From: Candidatus Burarchaeum australiense
GTDB taxonomy: Archaea; Micrarchaeota; Micrarchaeia; Burarchaeales; Burarchaeaceae
Direction: 5' to 3'
Length of the DNA stretch: 57,236 nucleotides
Assembly: GCA_902386535.1 (NCBI GenBank)
Contig: CABMJK010000014.1
Location: 1 to 57,236, forward strand
How positions within the stretch are numbered: position 1 is the stretch's first letter; each line of letters begins with the position of its first letter. The notes beneath the pieces were generated by a model that saw nothing but the letters and a program-made list of their open reading frames with translations, did no database searches and was not told the DNA's origin. Below, in pieces: positions 20,380 to 30,513 of this stretch. The position numbers and the translations under genes are program-made.

Positions 20380-21354
20380 ATGTTCAACAAAAGGCGCGAT
20401 TTCCTTGCAGACGCACGGGCGGGCATAAAGGAGGCCCACGCCTCGCGCGACATGCTGCTCTCGCACACCGTGAAGGCAATCTTCGAGGTGAACAGGGCGG
20501 CCAACCTGCTCTACGAGACGCTTACCGAATGGTACGGCCTCTACTTCCCGGAGCTCCGCGTCTCCGAGCCGGCCACGTTTGCCAAGCTGGTGCAGCTCAT
20601 CAACCGCGAGGACCTCAAGGCTTCCGACCTCTCGCCCCTGGTGGGCGACCAGAAGGCGCGGGAGCTGGAGGGCAAGGCGCGCACCTCGATGGGCGCGGCC
20701 CTCAAGACCGCGGACCTGGCCGAGCTCACCAAGCTGGCCCGCAAGCTCGAGGAGCTCTACGTCTACCGCGCCTCGCTGGAGGAATACCAGGCCGCGCTGG
20801 CCAATGAAATAGCCCCCAACCTCTCGCTTTTAGCAGGCCCGGAACTTGCAGCCAATCTGATAGCCCGTGCCGGCTCCCTGCGCAAGCTCGCGTTCATGCC
20901 CGCCTCCACTATTCAGGTTCTCGGAGCTGAGAAGGCGCTCTTCAAGCACCTGAAGAAGCACACCAAGCCGCCCAAGCACGGCCTGATTTTCCAGCACGTC
21001 TCCATCTCGATGGCCCCCATAAAGCAGCGCGGCAGGATTGCCCGTGCGCTCTCAACCAAGCTGGCCATCTGCTCCAAGGCCGATGCCTTCACAAGAAACC
21101 CGATTGGCGCGAAGCTGAAGGAAGAGTTCGATGCGAGGCTGAAGGCCATTCAGAATGCGCCGGTGAGGCCTCCCTCTTTCTGCCCGAAGCAGAAAGGGGC
21201 GCCTTTCCCTGCGGGGAAAGTGCCGTCCTCTTCTCCATCCGCTCCAACCACAACCTCAAGGCCCGCGGGCCCGAGCGGTTCGTATGGAAAGCCCGGGCCG
21301 TCTGGAACGCCGGGAAAGCCGGGGTTTTCGGGAAGGGGTGAGAGGAGAGGGTGA
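20380..21354 (+). CDS. nop5: Nop5 (Nop56/58) C/D box sRNP core protein
   Basis: NOSIC/Nop domain: LYETLTEWYGLYFPEL, QVLGAEKALFKHLKKHTKPPKHGLIFQH. Gly/Pro/Ser-rich RG tail. The ORF-track start at 20299 overlaps the upstream gene, so the Met at 20380 is preferred. Confidence 0.9.
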   Translation: MFNKRRDFLADARAGIKEAHASRDMLLSHTVKAIFEVNRAANLLYETLTEWYGLYFPELRVSEPATFAKLVQLINREDLKASDLSPLVGDQKARELEGKARTSMGAALKTADLAELTKLARKLEELYVYRASLEEYQAALANEIAPNLSLLAGPELAANLIARAGSLRKLAFMPASTIQVLGAEKALFKHLKKHTKPPKHGLIFQHVSISMAPIKQRGRIARALSTKLAICSKADAFTRNPIGAKLKEEFDARLKAIQNAPVRPPSFCPKQKGAPFPAGKVPSSSPSAPTTTSRPAGPSGSYGKPGPSGTPGKPGFSGRGERRG

Positions 21355-21376
21355 AAAGACGAGACGAGGTTGACGA

Positions 21377-21856
21377 ATGCCCACCTATACTTCAAAGGGC
21401 CATTTCGATTGGAACACTTCTGAAATAGCTAAGGCACTAAAGATAAAGGAAGCGGACGTCAAAGAATATTTTACTGATGGACGTCGGGTTTCATTCTTAT
21501 TGGAAAGACGGCTTGCATACGAAATTTTGAAAGGTTCAGTTGCCCTCAGTGAAGGTGCTGGGTTTGATATTTTGGATCCACAAGGAGGTAAATGGGAAGC
21601 AAGAAGCATCAGTAAAGATGGCGTGTATTTCTGTCCAAGCTATATGGTGGGTTCTGGGCGTCACTTCAATAAATCTGGCTTTCTGAGAAAACTTCACGAA
21701 ATTAAAGGATATGCTCTCTCAGATATCACTTCTTTTCCTTTAGTTCCATTTTGGTTCGTTACTACCTCACAAGTTCTTGCATGGTGGAAGGCACGTAAAC
21801 TAGGTTCTACTTCTAAAATATCCAGAGAAAAAGCCTTAGCACTCCTAAGTGAATAG
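21377..21856 (+). CDS. candidate type II restriction endonuclease (PD-(D/E)XK-like, PvuII-like size and motif)
   Basis: 159 aa, convergent with the methyltransferase and 3 nt from it. GFDILDPQGGKWEARS aligns by eye with my memory of the R.PvuII catalytic region NDAVDNAGQEYELKS (D..D..G...E.[KR]S). Confidence 0.45.
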   Translation: MPTYTSKGHFDWNTSEIAKALKIKEADVKEYFTDGRRVSFLLERRLAYEILKGSVALSEGAGFDILDPQGGKWEARSISKDGVYFCPSYMVGSGRHFNKSGFLRKLHEIKGYALSDITSFPLVPFWFVTTSQVLAWWKARKLGSTSKISREKALALLSE

Positions 21857-21859
21857 AAT

Positions 21860-22744
21860 TTATCCCTCTATTTCTATAGCTGTTTCTAGTGGCTGGAGCT
21901 TCATCTGATGTTTCTGACTTCTTATTCTTTCTTCAGCAATTCGAACGTAACTCTCATCAATATCCGTTCCAATATATTTTACTCCCAGTTCTGTACATGC
22001 AAGTGCCGTTGTTCCTATTCCTATAAATGGGTCGTACACGACAAGATCTTTTCTAACGCCGTGCAATTTTATGCACATGTAGGGCAATTTTTCTGGGAAC
22101 GTAGCTGGATGTGGCCTGCTCTCTTGTATTGTTTCATAAGGGATAAACCATATGTCGCCCCTGTCTCGCACATCCTTCTTTATACCCCATCTTTCTATGT
22201 TAGTTTTGTCTTGATATGGAACGCCCACAGATAACTTGTCTAGCTCGGTTTCTCCGCTCTTTGTGAAGTGGAAAATATTCTCATGACAGTTGTTCAGAAA
22301 GCGCCGGCTCTGAATTGGCTTATAGTGGCCTACCATTACATCGTTTTTCAACCCATTGCTTTTGCCTACATCATCCTTTGTAATGGCTATTGACTTTACC
22401 CAAATTATGTCGTTTTGCAATATATAGTGCTTCCTGAACCTATTTTCAACATCGTATGGAATCGCCAAATCCGAAGGTTTACCGCCTACATTGAGGAAGA
22501 ATGAACCATCTTTTTTCAAAACTCGCTTGCTTTCTATTGCAACCTGTTCCATCCAGGTCAGGTATTCTAGTCTTGTTTTATCGTCTTTATAGACGCTATA
22601 ATCTTTGCCAATATTGTACGGTGGAGACGTTACTATAATATCTATGGACTCGGCAGGCAATTCTTTCATAAACTGAACGCAGTCTTTCACGTAAAGCTTG
22701 TTCAGAAATTTGTCGTTTAACACTTTTCTACGCCCCATTGTCAT
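21860..22744 (-). CDS. DNA methyltransferase, beta class (SPPY; probably N4-cytosine, possibly N6-adenine)
   Basis: Motif [13 protein letters not shown] lies near the N-terminus and motif [13 protein letters not shown] near the C-terminus. This is the beta-class permutation. Confidence 0.9.
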
Positions 22745-22817
22745 CTATCCTCTATAGCTGAAGTATTTAAAAGTCTCCTAGGGTGGGGCGCGAGTGACTT
22801 TGCAATAAATTTACGCC

Positions 22818-23537
22818 CTATTCAGAAACTCGCTCCTCTAATCGTTTTATCATATCGAATATGTTCTGAAGTTGCATATCTTCCAGTTCTTTTCTATTTT
22901 TTACAATATGATAAAGTGAATGCGTCTTATCATTTGCATCATCTTTAAATTTATTTGTAACTGTAACTATCCTTTCAACCAATTTTCGTTCTGGCCCGAA
23001 GTCGGCAGTCCGTTTGTTAAACACTTCGAGTATTTCTGAAAAATCCCTATGTCTCCCCCGATTCTTATCAAAATATAGCTGAATACCTCTGTCCTTTTCT
23101 GTTCGATATTTTACTCTTAGAATTTCTATTAGGGCATTTTCGATTACTTTTCTACACAAAACTAGTGCTGCAGTACAGCAATTGTGCGTATAAGCGCGAT
23201 TTATTTCCTCTACGTGTGCTTTTACAAATGGATCCTCGCTGGGATATCTTATAAACTCTGTAATTTTTACAGTCGTTCTCCTCCCACGCGCTTTCTGTTT
23301 AATTATCACTTTTTCCTCTTGTAATTCGAAAGTTGACGGTAAACTTGTCCTATCCTCTTTATCGAGCATTCTTAAAACACTAAGTCCTTTGCTACGTGCA
23401 TAAATCTGTCCTACTGCATTTTTGGTACAATGTGGATGATTTTTTACGAGTAAATATATGTTCGTTCTAACCGTATTTTCTCCAATATCTAATTTTCTTG
23501 AGAGATATTTCACTATTTTGTCATCTAATTTTTTCAT
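22818..23537 (-). CDS. DUF4145-like helical-domain protein with N-terminal HTH-like segment
   Basis: NCCTAALVLCRKVIENALIEIL ... NKFKDDANDKTHS fits the pattern I recall for DUF4145 (A..R..lE..l ... GN.aaH). It is the last gene of the HTH operon. Confidence 0.5.
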   Translation of the reverse strand: MKKLDDKIVKYLSRKLDIGENTVRTNIYLLVKNHPHCTKNAVGQIYARSKGLSVLRMLDKEDRTSLPSTFELQEEKVIIKQKARGRRTTVKITEFIRYPSEDPFVKAHVEEINRAYTHNCCTAALVLCRKVIENALIEILRVKYRTEKDRGIQLYFDKNRGRHRDFSEILEVFNKRTADFGPERKLVERIVTVTNKFKDDANDKTHSLYHIVKNRKELEDMQLQNIFDMIKRLEERVSE

Positions 23538-23548
23538 TTATATGACCT

Positions 23549-23749
23549 TCATTTTTTCTTTAGCCCTTTTATGGGGAGTATAGAATATATCCTGCTCCTT
23601 TTCATTCCGATGATATCCGAAAATATTTCTGGTTTTGCACCTTCCTGTATTAGGCGACATAATAGTAGTCTATTCGTAATCCGTAATTCTTTTAGAAGAG
23701 TTCCTACTGGGTCCTCAGTTCCTTTTCCTATTTCAGTTGTTTTCGCCAT
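23549..23749 (-). CDS. small HTH protein, paralog 4 (most divergent)
   Basis: 66 aa. LLKELRITNRLL...GAKPEIFSDIIGMKRSRIYSIL. Its start codon directly abuts the stop of paralog 3 (TAGATG). Confidence 0.55.
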   Translation of the reverse strand: MAKTTEIGKGTEDPVGTLLKELRITNRLLLCRLIQEGAKPEIFSDIIGMKRSRIYSILPIKGLKKK

Positions 23750-23977
23750 CTACCCACCTCTTTTTTTATTCTTGAGCGTCTTCTTTCTACACAAATATGA
23801 TGTTATACTATTCACTGGTTTACCAAGCAAACGAGCTATCTCTGCAGGCCTAAACCCAATGTTGCTCAGGGCATGAGTCGCTTGCATCGTATTCATTTCT
23901 CTTACTTGTTGCATAGCTAGAAGTTTCAGTATGGAATCTAATTTCTCCGTTATTTCGTGAAACTGCTTTTCTTCCAT
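23750..23977 (-). CDS. small HTH protein, paralog 3
   Basis: 75 aa. KLDSILKLL...LSNIGFRPAEIARLLGKPVNSITSYL. TGAATG junction with paralog 2. Confidence 0.65.
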   Translation of the reverse strand: MEEKQFHEITEKLDSILKLLAMQQVREMNTMQATHALSNIGFRPAEIARLLGKPVNSITSYLCRKKTLKNKKRGG

Positions 23978-24190
23978 TCAATCACCTTTTTGTTTATTCT
24001 TTAATTTCGTCATAATAACGCTGATATGATTAGGTGTCTTTCCTAATATGGCTGCCATATCTCTTGGTTTTAAACCAACTGAAGATAAAATTACAACTTG
24101 CTCTCTGAGTGTTTTCTCTTTGACTACGTTTGCCGCCGTCAATCTGATCAATATATCTAACTTTTCAAGCATTTCAGAATCCAGGCTCAT
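23978..24190 (-). CDS. small HTH protein, paralog 2
   Basis: 70 aa. KLDILIRL...LSSVGLKPRDMAAILGKTPNHISVIM. TGAATG junction with paralog 1. Confidence 0.65.
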   Translation of the reverse strand: MSLDSEMLEKLDILIRLTAANVVKEKTLREQVVILSSVGLKPRDMAAILGKTPNHISVIMTKLKNKQKGD

Positions 24191-24427
24191 TCACTCACCC
24201 CCCTTTCTTATATTGTGCAGCTCACTAGCGATATATCCTCTACTTTTTCCTAGGATCTTAGCTATCTCAGCATCGCGAAGCCCAACTTTATTCAGGGCGG
24301 ATATTATCTCACGAGTTGTCACGTCTTCTCGTGCCTGCTCTTGTCTTACAAGCAAACACAAGATGGCATCAAGCCTAGTTAGTATCGCTTCACTGTCTTT
24401 ATCATTATTATCCATAATTACTCCCAA
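24191..24427 (-). CDS. small HTH protein, paralog 1
   Basis: 78 aa. RLDAILCLL...LNKVGLRDAEIAKILGKSRGYIASEL. Confidence 0.65.
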   Translation of the reverse strand: MGVIMDNNDKDSEAILTRLDAILCLLVRQEQAREDVTTREIISALNKVGLRDAEIAKILGKSRGYIASELHNIRKGGE

Positions 24428-24446
24428 GAATCTTTCAACGAGAAGA

Positions 24447-24454
24447 TATTTAAA
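24447..24454 (-). promoter_or_regulatory. TATA-box candidate for the HTH/DUF4145 operon
   Basis: Minus-strand TTTAAATA lies about 20 nt upstream of the ATG at 24427. Confidence 0.4.
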
Positions 24455-24613
24455 TCTATTGTAAGGTTTTTTGTTATTTTTCTAACTCTTACCTCGCTCA
24501 AAATCTTATCTCAAACCAAGTATTATCATCTAATTTGGCTGCTTCTCAAGACGACCTCTCCAAACCTCCTTAACACAACATCTGCCTTCCACTCCCGCCC
24601 CATACCTCGCCCC

Positions 24614-25423
24614 CTAATTCCCCTGCATCGTCCCATTCCCCGTTCCAACCATCCAATCACTCTCGTTCAGCCAATCCGCATCCACCGTCTTCGCAAAATG
24701 CACTTCCACGACCCCTTCGCGCTCGAGCTTCTGGAGCTCGGGATACTCGTAGGTGTAGAATATGCGGTCGGGCTTCGCGCCCTGCACAAAGCACCAGACT
24801 TCAACCTTCTTCCCCGTCGCCTTCTTTATCAGCTCGGCCATGTCGGCATAGCGCACGGAATAGACGCCCCAGATGGCATCTGCCTGCGCAAAGGTGACCG
24901 GGTGGGGGTCGACATAGGAAACCCCGTAAATCACGGCACCTCCGGGCGAGGCCCTTTCGTACCAGTGCTCCCTCGCGTTCATCTCGACATAGGCGGGATA
25001 TTGCAGGGAAGACTGCGCGCCCTCGTCCCATATTGCCCTCTGCGCGAAGTTGCTGAAGGAAGCGTAGGAATTGACGGAGTCCAGCAGCCTGACAAGGCTC
25101 CCGTGGTTGCCTGCGCCCGACCAGAAGCCCATGTGCACCTGCGTGCCCGACTGGTTGAGCAGGGGCTCAAAGGCAACCGCCTGGGCGAAGAGCACGTCTG
25201 TGAAGTTAGAAGAGGAAAGCTCGGCCAGCTTTACGGCCGGGTCCGTGAAGCGCGGCCCGGTTTCCTGCGCAGCACAGGTGGGACAAGCAGGCGGCGGAAG
25301 CAGGGCATAAACGAGCAGGAGCGCAACTGCCAATAAGAAAAGAACCTGACCAATCTTCTTCAGGGTTTTGGCTTCCATTGCCTTCCTATTTGATGTAAAC
25401 CTTTTTATACCTCCCAAATCCAT
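24614..25423 (-). CDS. membrane-anchored hypothetical protein
   Basis: 269-aa ORF with one N-terminal TM helix (VLFLLAVALLLVYALL). No recognised motif. Confidence 0.55.
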   Translation of the reverse strand: MDLGGIKRFTSNRKAMEAKTLKKIGQVLFLLAVALLLVYALLPPPACPTCAAQETGPRFTDPAVKLAELSSSNFTDVLFAQAVAFEPLLNQSGTQVHMGFWSGAGNHGSLVRLLDSVNSYASFSNFAQRAIWDEGAQSSLQYPAYVEMNAREHWYERASPGGAVIYGVSYVDPHPVTFAQADAIWGVYSVRYADMAELIKKATGKKVEVWCFVQGAKPDRIFYTYEYPELQKLEREGVVEVHFAKTVDADWLNESDWMVGTGNGTMQGN

Positions 25424-25431
25424 CTAAATCC

Positions 25432-25659
25432 ATGAAGTCTTTGGGCCTTACAGCCGTAATCTGGAAGGAAGGAAAGCACTATGTCTCGCTCTGTCCTCAG
25501 ATCGACGTTTCGAGCTTCGGCTTAACCAAGGCCGAGGCGATGGAGAACCTGAAAGAAGCAGCCTCCCTCTATCTTGAGGCCGCCAAGCAGCTCAAGCTGC
25601 CGCTGCCTGCCAAGGCATCTTATAAGAAACTAGTTCTGCCTCTGAAACTGGCTCAATAG
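25432..25659 (+). CDS. hicB: HicB-family antitoxin (UPF0150-like)
   Basis: 75 aa. VIWKEGKHYVSLCPQIDVSSFGLTKAEAMENLKEAASLYLE is the typical HicB N-terminal fold signature. Confidence 0.75.
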   Translation: MKSLGLTAVIWKEGKHYVSLCPQIDVSSFGLTKAEAMENLKEAASLYLEAAKQLKLPLPAKASYKKLVLPLKLAQ

Positions 25660-26106: not shown

Positions 26107-26616
26107 TCACTTTCTTCCGAGCTTCAGGCCAATGAGCAGCAGGAGCGCCAGCAGCACCAGTGCGCCGATGATTTCCACCGCGCCGAAGGAGAATTGGGCT
26201 GAAGGGGCGGGTGCGGGCTGCGGGGCTTGGGGCCGCACTGCAGGCTGGGACTTCTTCGCAGTCGCATTCACCACCGCGCCCTGCTCATCAACAGTCTTCC
26301 AACTGCCTTCTGCAGTGAAGTTGCCCTGCGTATTCGTGAAAGAGTAGGTTATCTTGCCGGCTGCAAGCGCCTGGTCAAAGAGCAGCCAGGTGTATTCATT
26401 GCCTGACTGCTTGCTGGGTGCGGGCACGCCCCAGGAAAAGACTGCGCCTTCGGGAAAAATCTCGGTCACTATGATGCCCGTGACGTTGGACGAGGCTTGA
26501 ATCGTGAGCATGGCCGAGGCAGATGAGCCCGACACCACGAGTTCGCGCTCGACCGACGTGGCGAGAGTTAGGGAAGCGAGAAGCACGAGCAATCCAACGA
26601 TTTTCATTCCAGTCAT
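26107..26616 (-). CDS. secreted protein with C-terminal TM anchor, coupled to the giant surface protein
   Basis: Signal peptide, PQAPQPAPAPS linker, and a C-terminal hydrophobic helix plus KLGRK. Its ATG abuts the upstream stop (TGAATG). Confidence 0.65.
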   Translation of the reverse strand: MTGMKIVGLLVLLASLTLATSVERELVVSGSSASAMLTIQASSNVTGIIVTEIFPEGAVFSWGVPAPSKQSGNEYTWLLFDQALAAGKITYSFTNTQGNFTAEGSWKTVDEQGAVVNATAKKSQPAVRPQAPQPAPAPSAQFSFGAVEIIGALVLLALLLLIGLKLGRK

Positions 26617-29600
26617 TCAACCACCTGAAGTATTGTAGGGCGGATAGTAGGGCGTTTCGTTGGCCGGCGGCGTAGCGGGCTCTTCGGGAGGCTCCTCAGG
26701 CGCAAGCGGCCCGTAATAATAATAGCCGTCAGCGCACTTCCAGTTGTTGTTCCTGTTCGTCTCATCCACCCGCTTTTCCATGTCAATCACCGCGCAGATG
26801 ATGTAGCCATTGTCAGCCAAGTCCTGCTCGGTCACCTTCTCGGGAGCGCCGCCTTTCAGATATGAATAAGACTCCCCGCCCGCTATGCCCGAGTGCGCCT
26901 GCTCCCCGTTGATCGAGCTGCCGTTCACGGAGCCAAGCCTCACGTCGAACCTGAAGTAGCCGGAGAAGTTCCTGCCGCCGTTCTTTATCACCACGCTAAT
27001 CAGGTGCTGTCCTACGCCGCCCAAATCCTTTGTGAATGAAATGGACTCGATGTAAAGGTCGATACTGGTCCGGGGCGCGCCCGGCTGGAACGAGAATATG
27101 CCTTCATTGTTGTCCTCATTGCTCTCCTCCAGCACGTGGTCGGGGTCAAGTATGAACTCGAACGCATCCCAGCCCTCGTTCACTGTTGTCAGGTGCTTGT
27201 GGTAAACCCACCATTTAACGGGTATTTTCTTGTACGATTCCGGCACAGGCGAGTACAGCTGGGACTTCATGCCGGCGCCCGGCCCTCCGATGATGCCTGC
27301 GCCAGTGCCGTTTGCGCTGCTGCCCGTAAGTGTGTCATCCACGTTGAATGAAGTATTCATTTCCGACCCACCGCGCTCCTTCATTATCTCGTCGTACAGC
27401 GTGCTTTCCCTGAAATTCGCTCCCGCGCCCGAGGCCACTCCGCCCGCCGGCGAACCAACCGGCGCTGCGCCTACGGTGCTATTTTCTCTGTCAAGGCCCG
27501 TCAGATTCAGCGTAATCCACTGCTGATAGGGCGCATCAGATGCCACTGTCCCTTCCTCCCAGCCTATTTTATTTCTGGTCCTAAAGACTCCTTTCGGCGG
27601 GGAAATGTCGCCCACCACGCGCATAACAGCATACGCGTCATACGTATCATACTGCCTTATGTCATCCGGCTTCACGGAAAGCGATTCTATGCCTGCATCC
27701 GGCCGGAAGGCCATTATCACGTACTTCTCGGCGCTCTTCTGCTTGTTCTCCGGGTGCAAGTCGAGCGCGCACACTATCTTGGCGGTTATGTTGTGCATGC
27801 CCTCCGAGTGGGGCGTCCAGTTCACATAGATGGTGCGGGAGCCGCCCCAGGACCAGCTGACGTTTGCAAACTCGGTCGCATTGTCATAGAAGCGCACGCT
27901 CGCATTCGCAGTTATCGGATATGGTGCGAGATACTCCACATCCACCCGTATCACGCCCGGCGCACCGTTCTCAACCATTTTCTCCTCCGGCAACTTGAAA
28001 TATGTAATGGCATATTGGGGGTTGTATACGTAGGCAGTCAGCGAGTCCAAATCTTTTCTTCCCACGGTATCATTCACCATTAGCGTATAGATGTACGTGC
28101 CTTCCTTGGCCTCGCTCCACTGCACCGGCTTCACTGCGCTCCAGTTGCCGATGAAATCGTACGCACCGCCGTTGAAGTTCCACGCGTACTGCGCCAGCGG
28201 ATAATCCTTTCCCACTGACTTGTTCGCATAAACGTAGAATTTCTCGCCCACCAGCACCTCAAAGGGCTTCACATAGCCCGGGCCCCATGCAGCGGCATAG
28301 GGTCCTTCCGAAGCATTCGTTTTCGCGCTCACATCCACCACATCATAATCATCCGGCTTCACGAGGTAGTAGTGGCCGGTCGCGCTCACATTGTATGCGG
28401 CCATTACCATGAAGTAGTATGTGGTGCTCGGCATCAGCCCCGTAACCGTGTAATTGGTCCGCGCAGGGTCGGTTATGAATGCCACGGGCACGCTGCACCT
28501 CGACCTTATGCCATCGTAGCTTATGTGGTTCTGCGAAACGCAGACGACATATGATTCGAAGAACTCGTTCCACACCCTATTCCACTGAAGGGGCACCGAG
28601 TCATGGTCTATCTTCTGCGGCTGCGTTATCTGCGCCCGCGTGCCCTCGAGCGTGCGCGCGTGCACGACAGTTGAGAATCTGGCAGCGCCGAATTTGTCCA
28701 CCGCCGAAACCTGATAGTAGCGGTCCACGCCCGGGTTCAGGTCTATAAATTCAGCAGTTGTCTTCGCCTTGTCCGTTATGTTGTAGAACAAAGTGCGCCC
28801 GCCGCCCGTGGCGTTTGTCCTGTAAACATGATACTCCTTGAAGTCCACGTCCTGGCACTCGTCCCACGCAACGGTGGCCTTTGTGTCGGTCACATCACTC
28901 ACCCACGTCTCGAACTCCGCGGGCGGATAGTTGCTGAAAGTCAGGGAGATATTGTACACGTTATTCTCGTTGAAGAAGTCATAGCCCGAGGAGAGCGTTG
29001 TGCCTTTCGGCCCTGTCCACGTTTGCTCTCCCGTCACTATCAGCGTGAGCGTGTATGCGCGCGGCTGGAACTTGTTGCTGTCAATCACTACAGTCAGCAC
29101 TCCGCCCGAGGGCGCGCCCGCAGGCGCGGGCAGCAGTGTCGTAGTGCTCTGCCCCAGCAAATTGCCGTTCGAATCATAGACATATGCCCGCACCTTCTTC
29201 GCCTCGCCGTGCCCGATGTTCTTCACAGGCACCTTTATCTCGAAATACCTGCCGACTATCGGGGTCGAATACTGCACCTCGCTCGGCTCCAGGCACACGT
29301 CCATCGAATATCTCACGTACATGTTGCCGAGCCTGCCCGCATCCGCCTCGCCGTAGCTCTTGAGCCCCTGCAAGACGGGCTGCATGAGGTTCTGCACGTA
29401 GGGTATTACGCACGCCGAGCCGAGCCCGAACTCCCAGTCATAGGCCTCCCACCCGCCTATCTGTATGATGCCGTCGGGCTGGTACTTGAGCAGCTCATAT
29501 TCCTTCCCAAGGCGCTTCACGAAGCTGTCCTCGCACTGCCAGCTCGCAAGCCCGTCCGAATCCGCTTTCTGCTTCATGCACGACAAGTCGTTCTTGTCCG

Positions 29601-30513
29601 CGGCCGCAAGCGCCGTCATCTCGCTCAGCGAATAGTAGCCGAACCAGCCCTGCCCCGGAGTTTCATTATAGACGTGATAATAGTGCCTGGATGCCATGAG
29701 GTTGCCGTAGCACAGGCTGATGTTCGTGACATCCTGCACATTCGCATACCATTCCATAATGCTGTCAAGCGTTTCGTGCATGAGGTACGCGGTCGCCTGC
29801 AGCACGTCGTCGAAGCTGAGCAGGAAGCCCGCGGGCGCGCCCACAATCACGAAGCCGATGCCGAACAGCTTGTTGGTGATGAGATAGTCTTTTATGACGA
29901 AATCCTTCACCGTCGGGCCGTAGACTGCTTTCACCAGGCCCATCACTACATCAAACTGGCTCTCGCCCTCCTCCACTGCCCCCAAATCATACGCAGCGTC
30001 AAAGTCCGCCTGGCCGATGAAGCTCCTCATCTCGTCCTCGACAACCTGGCCGTAGTAGCTCTTTATGTCATTCTTGTTCCCGTTGTACATCGCCACGTAT
30101 GTATGGTAATAATCCATGTACGCATTTTGGCGCGAGCCGAAGACATCGTCATAGTACTCGAAAGCGTACCCGGGTATGTGGGTTTTCAGTGTGCACACCT
30201 TCGGCTGGGCCGCGGCAGAGCGCATGTCGGGCACGGGCGGCGGCTGGCCGGGCTTCTGCGTGAGCGCGTCAATGTCCTCCAGCACAGCGATGTCGCTTAT
30301 TGCGCCCGACGTCCACTGATCGACGCTGGCCATCTGCAGGTCCTGGGCCGAGGAGGCCACTATGCCGGATGTGCTCTGCCCGCCGGATTCGCCTTCCACC
30401 GGCTCAACCTCCATGTACTGCTCTTCAAGCGTGATTTGGGCAGCCTGCAGTTGGGCAAAAGAGAGCGGGAAAGATATGAGGAGAAGCATGAATGCGCAGA
30501 GCATCCTGTTCAT
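26617..30513 (-). CDS. giant secreted surface protein (FN3-like and CARDB/PKD-like beta-sandwich repeats)
   Basis: 1298 aa with a signal peptide. Two FN3-like modules (ATVAWDECQDVDFKEYHVYR...YYQVSAVD; VPLQWNRVW...TTYYFMVMAAY), CARDB-like segments (VKNIGHGEAKKV; IKNGGRNFSG), and a Pro/Glu-rich tail. Confidence 0.8.
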   Translation of the reverse strand: MNRMLCAFMLLLISFPLSFAQLQAAQITLEEQYMEVEPVEGESGGQSTSGIVASSAQDLQMASVDQWTSGAISDIAVLEDIDALTQKPGQPPPVPDMRSAAAQPKVCTLKTHIPGYAFEYYDDVFGSRQNAYMDYYHTYVAMYNGNKNDIKSYYGQVVEDEMRSFIGQADFDAAYDLGAVEEGESQFDVVMGLVKAVYGPTVKDFVIKDYLITNKLFGIGFVIVGAPAGFLLSFDDVLQATAYLMHETLDSIMEWYANVQDVTNISLCYGNLMASRHYYHVYNETPGQGWFGYYSLSEMTALAAADKNDLSCMKQKADSDGLASWQCEDSFVKRLGKEYELLKYQPDGIIQIGGWEAYDWEFGLGSACVIPYVQNLMQPVLQGLKSYGEADAGRLGNMYVRYSMDVCLEPSEVQYSTPIVGRYFEIKVPVKNIGHGEAKKVRAYVYDSNGNLLGQSTTTLLPAPAGAPSGGVLTVVIDSNKFQPRAYTLTLIVTGEQTWTGPKGTTLSSGYDFFNENNVYNISLTFSNYPPAEFETWVSDVTDTKATVAWDECQDVDFKEYHVYRTNATGGGRTLFYNITDKAKTTAEFIDLNPGVDRYYQVSAVDKFGAARFSTVVHARTLEGTRAQITQPQKIDHDSVPLQWNRVWNEFFESYVVCVSQNHISYDGIRSRCSVPVAFITDPARTNYTVTGLMPSTTYYFMVMAAYNVSATGHYYLVKPDDYDVVDVSAKTNASEGPYAAAWGPGYVKPFEVLVGEKFYVYANKSVGKDYPLAQYAWNFNGGAYDFIGNWSAVKPVQWSEAKEGTYIYTLMVNDTVGRKDLDSLTAYVYNPQYAITYFKLPEEKMVENGAPGVIRVDVEYLAPYPITANASVRFYDNATEFANVSWSWGGSRTIYVNWTPHSEGMHNITAKIVCALDLHPENKQKSAEKYVIMAFRPDAGIESLSVKPDDIRQYDTYDAYAVMRVVGDISPPKGVFRTRNKIGWEEGTVASDAPYQQWITLNLTGLDRENSTVGAAPVGSPAGGVASGAGANFRESTLYDEIMKERGGSEMNTSFNVDDTLTGSSANGTGAGIIGGPGAGMKSQLYSPVPESYKKIPVKWWVYHKHLTTVNEGWDAFEFILDPDHVLEESNEDNNEGIFSFQPGAPRTSIDLYIESISFTKDLGGVGQHLISVVIKNGGRNFSGYFRFDVRLGSVNGSSINGEQAHSGIAGGESYSYLKGGAPEKVTEQDLADNGYIICAVIDMEKRVDETNRNNNWKCADGYYYYGPLAPEEPPEEPATPPANETPYYPPYNTSGG

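Follow-up and report, generated by a model that had tools for sequence, protein, structure and literature searches.

The array of four small open reading frames (ORFs) encoded on the minus strand of a 57,236-nucleotide contig of Candidatus Burarchaeum australiense (CABMJK010000014.1, analyzed over its full length and referred to below as the window) is part of a recurrent gene cassette in which several small proteins of a predicted helix-turn-helix (HTH) type are encoded next to a predicted HEPN-type effector. The four ORFs are denoted p1 to p4, in order from position 24427 to position 23549. Cassettes of this "HTH array + HEPN effector" type recur in defence islands of archaea and bacteria, often inside or beside restriction-modification (R-M) systems. 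The array is most plausibly a DNA-binding regulator or adaptor module of a HEPN abortive-infection or toxin-like cassette; we put the probability of this reading, the mechanism of which we infer, at about 0.55. The genes in question are the following.

24191..24415, minus strand: p1, 74 amino acids (aa), long-form small HTH protein of subfamily C
23978..24190, minus strand: p2, 70 aa, long-form small HTH protein of subfamily A
23750..23977, minus strand: p3, 75 aa, long-form small HTH protein of subfamily A
23549..23749, minus strand: p4, 66 aa, short-form HTH protein of subfamily B, without one helix-length segment
22818..23537, minus strand: the 239-aa effector, with a predicted N-terminal helical HTH-like domain, a linker and a C-terminal divergent HEPN domain

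The coordinates and junction reads (TGAATG, TGAATG and TAGATG for p1/p2, p2/p3 and p3/p4) confirm the initial annotation in that the four ORFs abut with spacers of 0 nt; p4 is separated from the 239-aa ORF (23537..22818) by 11 nt that include a Shine-Dalgarno (SD)-like motif. Motifs of this kind precede the starts of p1-p4 and of the 239-aa gene by 4-8 nt (GGGAG, GGGGGTGA, AAGGTGAT, GAGGTGGG and GAAGGTCA), and within the array they code for the Gly-rich C-termini of the preceding proteins. Together, the 0-nt junctions and the SD-like motifs bear out the proposed translational coupling. The original size range of 66-78 aa holds for p2-p4; for p1, the upper value corresponds to an alternative TTG start at 24427, but the start is most likely the ATG at 24415, which yields 74 aa, because GGGAG precedes that ATG and the public gene call P0001 uses the same start. 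The genes are clearly subject to purifying selection: the ratio of nonsynonymous to synonymous substitution rates (dN/dS) is 0.24 for p4 compared with its ortholog in locus L013, 0.12 for the 239-aa gene, and 0.02-0.14 at each position for orthologous array members in other loci, so that the coding signature looked for (0.02-0.24 overall) is present and the ORFs are conserved. ORFs of 44-50 aa at the far end of some arrays have a dN/dS of 0.82 and look spurious. No further copy of the family was found elsewhere in the 57-kb window. Thus, p1-p4 are real, individually maintained and coupled genes.

The four proteins are divergent paralogs. Pairwise BLASTP comparison of p1-p3 yields E-values of 1.6e-8, 9e-12 and 6e-14; p4 is not detected by pairwise BLASTP with p1-p3 (best E = 0.018) and is linked to the others by profile comparison only (subfamily B versus subfamily A, hhalign probability 97.1%), which agrees with the initial view of a family of tiny HTH paralogs with p4 as the most divergent copy. 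The sequence motif originally proposed as common to all four is an approximate fit for p1-p3 and only a loose one for p4, where the N-terminal helix passes nearly straight into the HTH. When 166 small ORFs from homologous arrays were clustered, 144 fell in a single BLASTP component, with subfamilies A and C comprising long forms, B and D short forms, and E winged HTH (wHTH) proteins of about 100 aa. The hhalign probabilities are 99.3% for A-C, 97.1% for A-B, 96.1% for A-D, 97.2% for B-D and 92.3% for A-E, and p1-p4 have diverged anciently within the family.

An exhaustive HMMER search over 1.84 billion representative sequences detects 2252 representative clusters of this family at E<=1e-3 and 334 at E<=1e-10, nearly all of them 66-120 aa in length; all ten members that were looked up are named "hypothetical". 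A hidden Markov model search, suggested at the outset as a way to gauge the copy number of the family, therefore reveals a large one, and the impression of a rare family conveyed by a word-indexed search with a four-protein profile (6 foreign matches) is overturned. A search for related loci with a narrower alignment, A4, retrieved 2 genomes. The family is large yet effectively invisible to routine annotation. None of p1-p4 reaches a curated Pfam or NCBIfam threshold, and the best matches are weak ones to generic HTH models (E = 2e-4 for PHROGs and 4.6e-4 for PADLOC), the families matched across libraries being Sigma70_r4_2, HTH_23, HTH_Crp_2, CasR and Csa3. In Pfam, the window proteins produce only sub-threshold matches, e.g., 17.6 bits for Sigma70_r4_2 against a cutoff of 25.7; p3 matches Sigma70_r4_2, Terminase_5 and HTH_23, and p4 has no match. 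Among 105 array proteins, those with Pfam matches at E<=1e-3 include 13 to Sigma70_r4_2 (best E 4.2e-7), 13 to HTH_23 and 5 to GerE.

The AlphaFold2 model of p2, built from a 10-sequence alignment with a mean predicted local distance difference test (pLDDT) value of 88.8, contains helices at 2-25, 28-37, 42-49 and 53-69, where the long N-terminal helix is followed by a three-helix core (28-37, 42-49, 53-69) with the geometry of a tri-helical HTH; the HTH fold on which the initial proposal depended is thus recovered by structure prediction. The best local Foldseek matches of this model are EsrB (LuxR-type), region 4 of SigD, MarR and the archaeal transcription factor 8hno, with template modeling (TM) scores of 0.55-0.58 and root mean square deviations of 1.7-2.1 A over 44-50 residues, although the E-values are not significant. 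Apart from HTH repeats of a generic or designed nature, a sequence search of the PDB with the family identifies only the PH1932 regulator. Thus, p1-p4 are members of a family that lacks annotation and has a predicted four-helix HTH fold of the sigma region 4/LuxR type; its proteins comprise 55-90 aa, and in each of them an amphipathic helix at the N-terminus is predicted to precede a tri-helical HTH resembling sigma region 4 and LuxR, with a basic tail at the end. The amphipathic helix is the one feature common to the short HTH, long HTH and wHTH members, and p2-p4 have an isoelectric point (pI) of about 10 with basic C-terminal tails. Three much larger proteins, P0097 (800 aa), P0100 (665 aa) and P0188 (1135 aa), consist of 10-16 tandem generic HTH repeats (LYNEGLSxxEIAxxLGxSxxTV...), and the designed "CAP repeat" protein (PDB 8vd6) matches the profile in the same manner. 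P0097 and P0100 (10-11 repeats), considered as possible family members, were set aside as a different repeat class given that they match only the generic HTH part; the three proteins probably represent an unrelated class.

The 239-aa protein has 88 homologs, none with a Pfam annotation; some are from metagenome-assembled genomes that carry the label DPANN archaea, and the bins of others are labelled Planctomycetes or WOR-3 (the Methanomicrobiales genomes discussed below were retrieved with the small-HTH family, not with the effector). Starting from effector homologs in 80 metagenomic loci and one IMG/VR locus, the upstream region was walked with an ORF-chaining script, and tightly packed small ORFs of 40-140 aa were counted in those 43 non-redundant loci whose upstream sequence extends over at least 1.2 kb. 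One to six such ORFs lie directly upstream of the effector in 39 of the 43 loci, with four as the commonest number (none in 4 loci, one in 2, two in 7, three in 8, four in 11, five in 7 and six in 4). The median distance at the junctions is 2 nt, and 87 of the 123 junctions are 4 nt or shorter or overlapping. The order of the subfamilies is loosely conserved: subfamily C, the usual type at the first position, comes first in 19 of 36 arrays, and a short form, B or D, adjoins the effector in 21 of 36. By subfamily and length, the array of the window is C74-A70-A75-B66. Promoters of the sigma-70 type are present in some of these loci and archaeal TATA boxes in others, and the cassette therefore occurs in both domains. 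The functional tie to the downstream gene proposed originally is thus backed by retention of the array in roughly 39 of the 43 loci; the description of the tandem array as unusual is misleading, given that arrays of 2-6 genes, most often four, are the normal state of the cassette. The array is a recurrent architecture without prior description rather than a local oddity.

Independent sampling, in which contexts of small-HTH family members were picked without reference to the effector, leads to the same picture: every context looked up contains at least three consecutive small genes.

L001, 6106-8270: six consecutive small HTH/wHTH genes
L005, 5224-9032: about nine consecutive genes, with a TIR-like gene just upstream
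L006, 6854-8955: about seven consecutive genes
L002: three genes in a row
L094: three small HTH genes and a two-unit fusion, P0158
L095, L097 and L098: four genes each

The arrays of L095 and L098 are each followed by a gene for a 260-266-aa protein with a significant match to PF18731, HEPN_Swt1, and an intact RNxxAH motif (RNIIAH). In L094, L097 and L006, the array precedes other putative effectors that are unannotated; the proteins encoded after the arrays of L006 and L094 are nuclease-like by eye only. The arrays of six to nine genes (L001, L005 and L006) belong to genomes of the Methanomicrobiales type and other archaea, and all their members have the N-terminal amphipathic helix. P0158 (L094:945-1403, 152 aa), located within its array, combines two complete small-HTH units in a natural fusion, a Rosetta-stone hint that neighboring array members act together; such fusions are rare, with one among the top 150 HMMER matches. 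The L094 array is followed by two unannotated proteins of 233 and 372 aa. In the methanogen genome of L095, the HEPN_Swt1 effector is directly followed by a 509-aa unannotated protein (L095:7052-8581), with no Pfam match recorded for the called gene and no PADLOC match, which could be a further component of the cassette or a transposon-type gene.

AlphaFold2 modeling of the 239-aa effector from 78 sequences (pLDDT 92.3) yields a helical HTH-like domain (residues 1-65), a basic disordered linker (66-100) and a C-terminal helical bundle with the up-and-down arrangement of four helices that is typical of HEPN domains. The top Foldseek match is 2q00 (probability 0.99, TM(target) 0.69), which is listed as a HEPN domain of the PaREP1 type (PMC3710099), and the HepT toxins 7bxo and 6m6w are also among the matches. 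The window protein itself has no match to the DUF4145 or HEPN_Swt1 profile; across its family, sub-threshold matches to DUF4145 (PF13643) are obtained for 20 of the 78 sequences (best E 2.2e-4) and to DUF5677 for 15 of the 78. An hhalign comparison of the effector family with the HEPN_Swt1 protein of L095 yields a probability of 92% over 146 columns; the alignment runs mostly over the N-terminal domain, which the two have in common, and over the first HEPN helix, with the linker also covered. The invariant residues of the family are R129, K130, E133, H206 and S207. The characteristic Rx4-6H motif is absent, with Ala201 at the position of the arginine (FKDDANDKTHS), and a nearly invariant K198 stands 8 residues before H206, the same spacing as between R146 and H154 of RAZR. 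A relationship between the N-terminal domain of the effector and the small HTH proteins was considered and is not convincing (hhalign probability of 55% at most). As judged from the predicted fold, the effector is probably a divergent HEPN protein of the DUF4145/Swt1-like kind, perhaps with non-canonical catalysis; "DUF4145-like", as the downstream gene was first labelled, is a fair description that the sub-threshold DUF4145 matches, the HEPN-like fold and the hhalign match to Swt1 all uphold.

The cassette is located in a low-GC island next to the Nop5 gene. The surrounding chromosome is archaeal and, by its gene content, of the euryarchaeal type; it encodes, in addition to Nop5, both subunits of PolD (DP1/DP2), a split RpoB, RpoA', SMC and EF-2. 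The island and its other features are as follows.

21360..24560, no strand: low-GC island, 30-44% GC within a chromosome of about 59-68% GC, beginning right after the Nop5 gene
21377..21856, plus strand: type II restriction endonuclease (REase), 159 aa (PADLOC REase_II, 3.8e-52), convergent with the methyltransferase (MTase) gene
21860..22744, minus strand: type II N6/N4 DNA MTase, 294 aa (PF01555, 2.7e-49; PADLOC MTase_II, 4.6e-109)
22764-22772, minus strand: TATA-like box TTTTAAATA, preceding the MTase gene
24447..24454, minus strand: TATA-like box TTTAAATA, the putative array operon promoter, located 31 nt before the ATG of p1

The island is about 3.2 kb in length and sharply bounded. A counterpart beside the orthologous Nop5 gene of a related archaeon, that of L007 (1-7028), was compared with window positions 20431-23771; related islands are also present in L008, L009 and L013. 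DNA conservation between the window and L007 is confined to one 992-nt block of 78% identity (window 23771-22783), which covers only p4 and the effector, and the p4 protein shares 59-61% of its amino acids with the 66-aa gene product of L007/L013. The three upstream HTH genes of L007 differ from p1-p3, and the R-M genes are replaced: L007 encodes a 318-aa MTase, a 423-aa REase_II-like protein and a 210-aa DEDDh-like protein (exonuclease). Because only this block is shared between the two sites, p4 and the effector, which are inherited jointly, form the core of the cassette, with the distal array members and the R-M genes being exchangeable, and the Nop5-adjacent site resembles a defence hot spot in which variable genes are combined with a constant core. 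More generally, 134 ORFs were compiled from the flanks of about 60 non-redundant cassettes. N6_N4_Mtase (10), N6_Mtase (4) and Eco57I (4) are the most frequent Pfam families among them; REases of the TdeIII, AlwI, MjaI, MutH-like and HSDR_N families are also represented, as are Schlafen/AlbA_2 (3), AbiEii-like AAA_21 (3) and DUF4062 (3). In L011, the cassette lies between hsdS and hsdR. R-M genes thus flank the cassettes often, not always.

TATA-like boxes precede both p1 and the MTase gene, and for this reason the array and the 239-aa gene look like a single operon, with the MTase gene under a promoter of its own; boxes resembling TTTAAATA are also found upstream of arrays in other archaeal loci. 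The operator-like repeats that the initial annotation had suggested looking for are weak in the window, the sole candidate being an imperfect AT-rich palindrome (24443-24460) that overlaps the TATA box of the array. In the bacterial loci L035, L046, L051, L057 and L058, the -35 box of a promoter that resembles the sigma-70 type (TTGACA-N17-TATTAT) is enclosed by a conserved inverted repeat (AAGGTAATAG ... CATTACCTT, about 40-110 nt before the first array gene), which persists though synonymous sites are near saturation between the loci; this repeat is a candidate operator for the array proteins. A search for known non-coding RNAs (ncRNA) upstream of the array produced no Rfam match, and the predicted fold of 200 nt of this region is no better than that of shuffled sequences (z = -0.39).

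These observations are best compatible with a scheme in which the small proteins, probably oligomerized with themselves or with one another via the shared N-terminal helix, bind DNA and keep the HEPN-type effector, a predicted ribonuclease (RNase) toxin, silent. Silencing could be achieved by repression of the operon promoter, by direct antitoxin-like sequestration or by both, with the short-form p4 as the putative cognate partner of the effector and the distal long-form members as exchangeable ones. Infection or loss of the island would release the effector, which would then serve as an abortive-infection or addiction back-up to the neighboring R-M or other defence genes. In prokaryotic immunity, HEPN RNases repeatedly act as executioners, and the central mechanistic question is by what means each of them is kept silent. 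If the arrays regulate or gate the effector, they represent a new and experimentally tractable accessory module of abortive-infection or toxin systems; if they are only layered repressors, thousands of small "hypothetical" genes are annotated nevertheless. In either case, a large family (2252 representative clusters) without a Pfam model, a PADLOC model or an informative source name is now defined, with a conserved, ordered, multi-gene architecture ahead of HEPN and other nuclease-like effectors, and a common neighbor of R-M systems is explained.

Comparison with known systems places the individual parts among familiar kinds (HTH proteins, a HEPN effector, a defence island); for their combination, no prior description was found in the literature on DUF4145, on HEPN and HTH arrays, on wHTH arrays in archaeal dark matter or on PDC-M34, and no database model was found for small-HTH gene arrays coupled to HEPN effectors. 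Among the closest known systems are abortive-infection proteins with DUF4145/Swt1-type HEPN domains. DUF4145 is a divergent HEPN domain that is linked to R-M systems and fused, among others, to sigma-type HTH domains, as recorded in the survey of Anantharaman et al. 2013 (PMC3710099). RAZR/PD-T7-4 provides an example of a DUF4145 protein that acts as an abortive-infection RNase (PMC13017515). R-M-linked RNases of this type are known among DUF4145 and HEPN proteins (PMC3710099, PMC13017515). The effector resembles these proteins in the HEPN-like bundle, the invariant histidine, the sub-threshold DUF4145 matches and the location in an R-M/defence island, but differs from them in the sequence ANDKTH that replaces the canonical arginine of Rx4-6H, in an N-terminus that is a distinct helical module and not a zinc finger, and in the conserved array of 2-6 separate small HTH genes that precedes it. 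Small-HTH arrays are mentioned in neither PMC3710099 nor PMC13017515. The HEPN_Swt1 effectors of L095 and L098 match a component of the PADLOC candidate system PDC-M34, PDC-M34B, at 1e-52 and 7e-43, respectively; in contrast, the window effector has no PADLOC match and the array proteins match no PDC-M34 component among the listed families. PADLOC 2.0 covers the HEPN_Swt1 component only, as the untested candidate PDC-M34B, and no paper describing PDC-M34 was found. The gene order and tight coupling (the 11-nt gap with its SD-like motif) fit the layout of type II toxin-antitoxin systems, including the three-component omega-epsilon-zeta type, in which small DNA-binding-type genes are located upstream of and coupled to a putative toxin gene, in mobile islands; neutralization of the effector by the array proteins would be the putative counterpart. 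Unlike in such systems, however, several paralogous genes in a conserved order take the place of one antitoxin, and the putative toxin comprises 239 aa with an HTH-like domain of its own.

Several observations weigh against the interpretation of the array as a DNA-binding module of a HEPN toxin-like cassette. There is no convincing operator repeat upstream of the window array; no array protein or effector of the window reaches a curated Pfam threshold; Foldseek comparison of the p2 model with the PDB yields no significant E-value for such small folds; and the effector has no PADLOC match (E<=0.1). The canonical HEPN arginine is replaced, with ANDKTH where the Swt1-type relatives have RNxxAH, and for this reason the effector may be non-catalytic. 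Furthermore, 4 of the 43 loci have no array immediately upstream, although family members are encoded slightly further upstream or just downstream of the effector in three of them (L076, L077 and L079) and only downstream in the fourth (L083). The arrays were called with a simple ORF-chaining script, so that the counts are approximate.

A possible, if rather unlikely, alternative is that the paralogs sense as well as silence: they would assemble via their N-terminal helices into a hetero-oligomeric nucleoprotein scaffold that cages the HEPN effector on DNA, with exchangeable members recognizing different invader cues and disturbance of the scaffold setting the RNase free. The precedent is provided by type IX retrons, which encode a reverse transcriptase (RT), an ncRNA, an HTH/winged-helix protein and a HEPN RNase and in which the HTH/winged-helix protein together with DNA keeps the RNase inactive as long as no phage nuclease disturbs the assembly (bioRxiv 10.64898/2026.07.14.737667, 738597). 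The two share HTH-type proteins encoded with a HEPN protein; however, the island contains no RT ORF, no ncRNA (no Rfam match) and no multicopy single-stranded DNA, the small proteins belong to a different HTH family and come in multi-gene arrays, and the likeness is one of mechanistic analogy only. The amphipathic helix common to otherwise different HTH and wHTH members, the conserved subfamily order with purifying selection on each member, the exchange of the middle members between the window and L007 islands with retention of p4 and the effector, the natural fusion P0158, and the HTH-like domain and basic linker of the effector itself would all be accommodated. Conversely, fusions are rare (1 in the top 150 matches), the upstream region contains no candidate for a scaffold nucleic acid (neither an Rfam match nor a stable RNA fold), and all these observations fit plain repressors equally well. 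The most far-reaching version of this reading, likewise rather unlikely, takes the ordered array to be a new kind of modular device that would act as sensor and gate of nuclease effectors, HEPN proteins among them, in the form of a hetero-oligomeric cage on DNA. Retron-IX-like caging would then, on rather long odds, be accomplished with proteins and genomic DNA only, and the swappable middle subunits would set what is sensed. If true, such a module would be common among both archaea and bacteria, given the more than 2000 clusters of the family.

The array could alternatively control the R-M pair, in the manner of the controller (C) proteins that time MTase and REase expression during establishment of an R-M system; control of the R-M pair was part of the original proposal. 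C proteins are likewise small HTH proteins encoded beside R-M systems; the array shares the island and the strand with the MTase gene, MTases and REases are the commonest neighbors of the cassette elsewhere, and the L011 cassette is embedded in a type I R-M operon. However, the conserved partner of the array is the HEPN-like gene and no R-M gene, many cassettes have no R-M neighbor, and in L007 the R-M genes were swapped at the same site while p4 and the effector were retained. A C protein is encoded by one Xre-type gene rather than by an array of four; this gene lies upstream of the REase gene, with which it is co-transcribed, and its product acts on palindromic C-boxes, for which the palindrome over the TATA box (24443-24460) would be the single candidate in the window. 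Here, in contrast, four sigma-region-4-like genes precede a HEPN-like gene, and the R-M genes are exchangeable and reside on separate promoters and strands, the REase gene being convergent on the opposite strand about 1.7 kb away and the MTase gene having a TATA-like box of its own. The window proteins do not match the Xre-type C-protein domain HTH_3 (PF01381); a single sub-threshold match to an Xre-like HTH is found for p1 (PF20432, E 0.047), with 2 such cases among 105 array proteins. The tie to the R-M pair is accordingly loose, and a controller role is improbable.

Still less probable is that the array is a remnant of a mobile element, i.e., a row of small repressors from the immunity region of an integrated plasmid or virus that is unrelated to HEPN activity. 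The island is indeed low in GC, sharply bounded and horizontally acquired, rows of small HTH genes are typical of the control regions of mobile elements, and one cassette resides on an IMG/VR contig. Yet the 3.2 kb contain no integrase, replication or structural genes, 2.9 million viral contigs yield one effector relative and none for the A4 subfamily, no PHROG match is better than E = 2e-4, and the linkage to the HEPN effector is kept across very divergent loci. A virus or plasmid origin was rejected on the same grounds, i.e., the single IMG/VR effector locus, none for the A4 subfamily and the weak PHROG matches.

The least probable of the alternatives is that the HTH-like fold serves, in place of DNA binding, RNA binding or a pure protein-protein adaptor role, e.g., as chaperone-like partners of an effector that is a predicted RNase: no Pfam threshold is reached, no operator is identified and the Foldseek matches include three-helix bundles of comparable shape, e.g., the N-terminal domain of PEX14, but (P)xEIAxxLGK-x4-I is a classic helix-turn-recognition-helix signature, the best profile matches are consistently to DNA-binding HTH families, and the C-terminal tails are basic, with a pI of about 10 for p2-p4.

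Several further features of the window surround the island. At its upstream boundary, a G-rich stretch on the minus strand (24585-24640), with runs of GGG to GGGGG and a plus-strand GC skew of -0.65, overlaps the 3' end of a 269-aa host ORF; no function of this stretch is evident, and its predicted RNA fold is no better than that of shuffled sequences. Just outside the island, a 75-aa ORF (25432-25659, plus strand) shows weak similarity to HicB-like antitoxins (phrog_497, E 4.8e-4; HicB_lk_antitox, E 0.16), and no HicA partner was noticed. Further away, on the minus strand, a 1298-aa secreted-looking protein (26617-30513) with a signal peptide and, by eye, Ig/FN3-like repeats is followed by a 169-aa protein (26107-26616) with a C-terminal transmembrane anchor; these two proteins are possibly a surface or S-layer-type pair.

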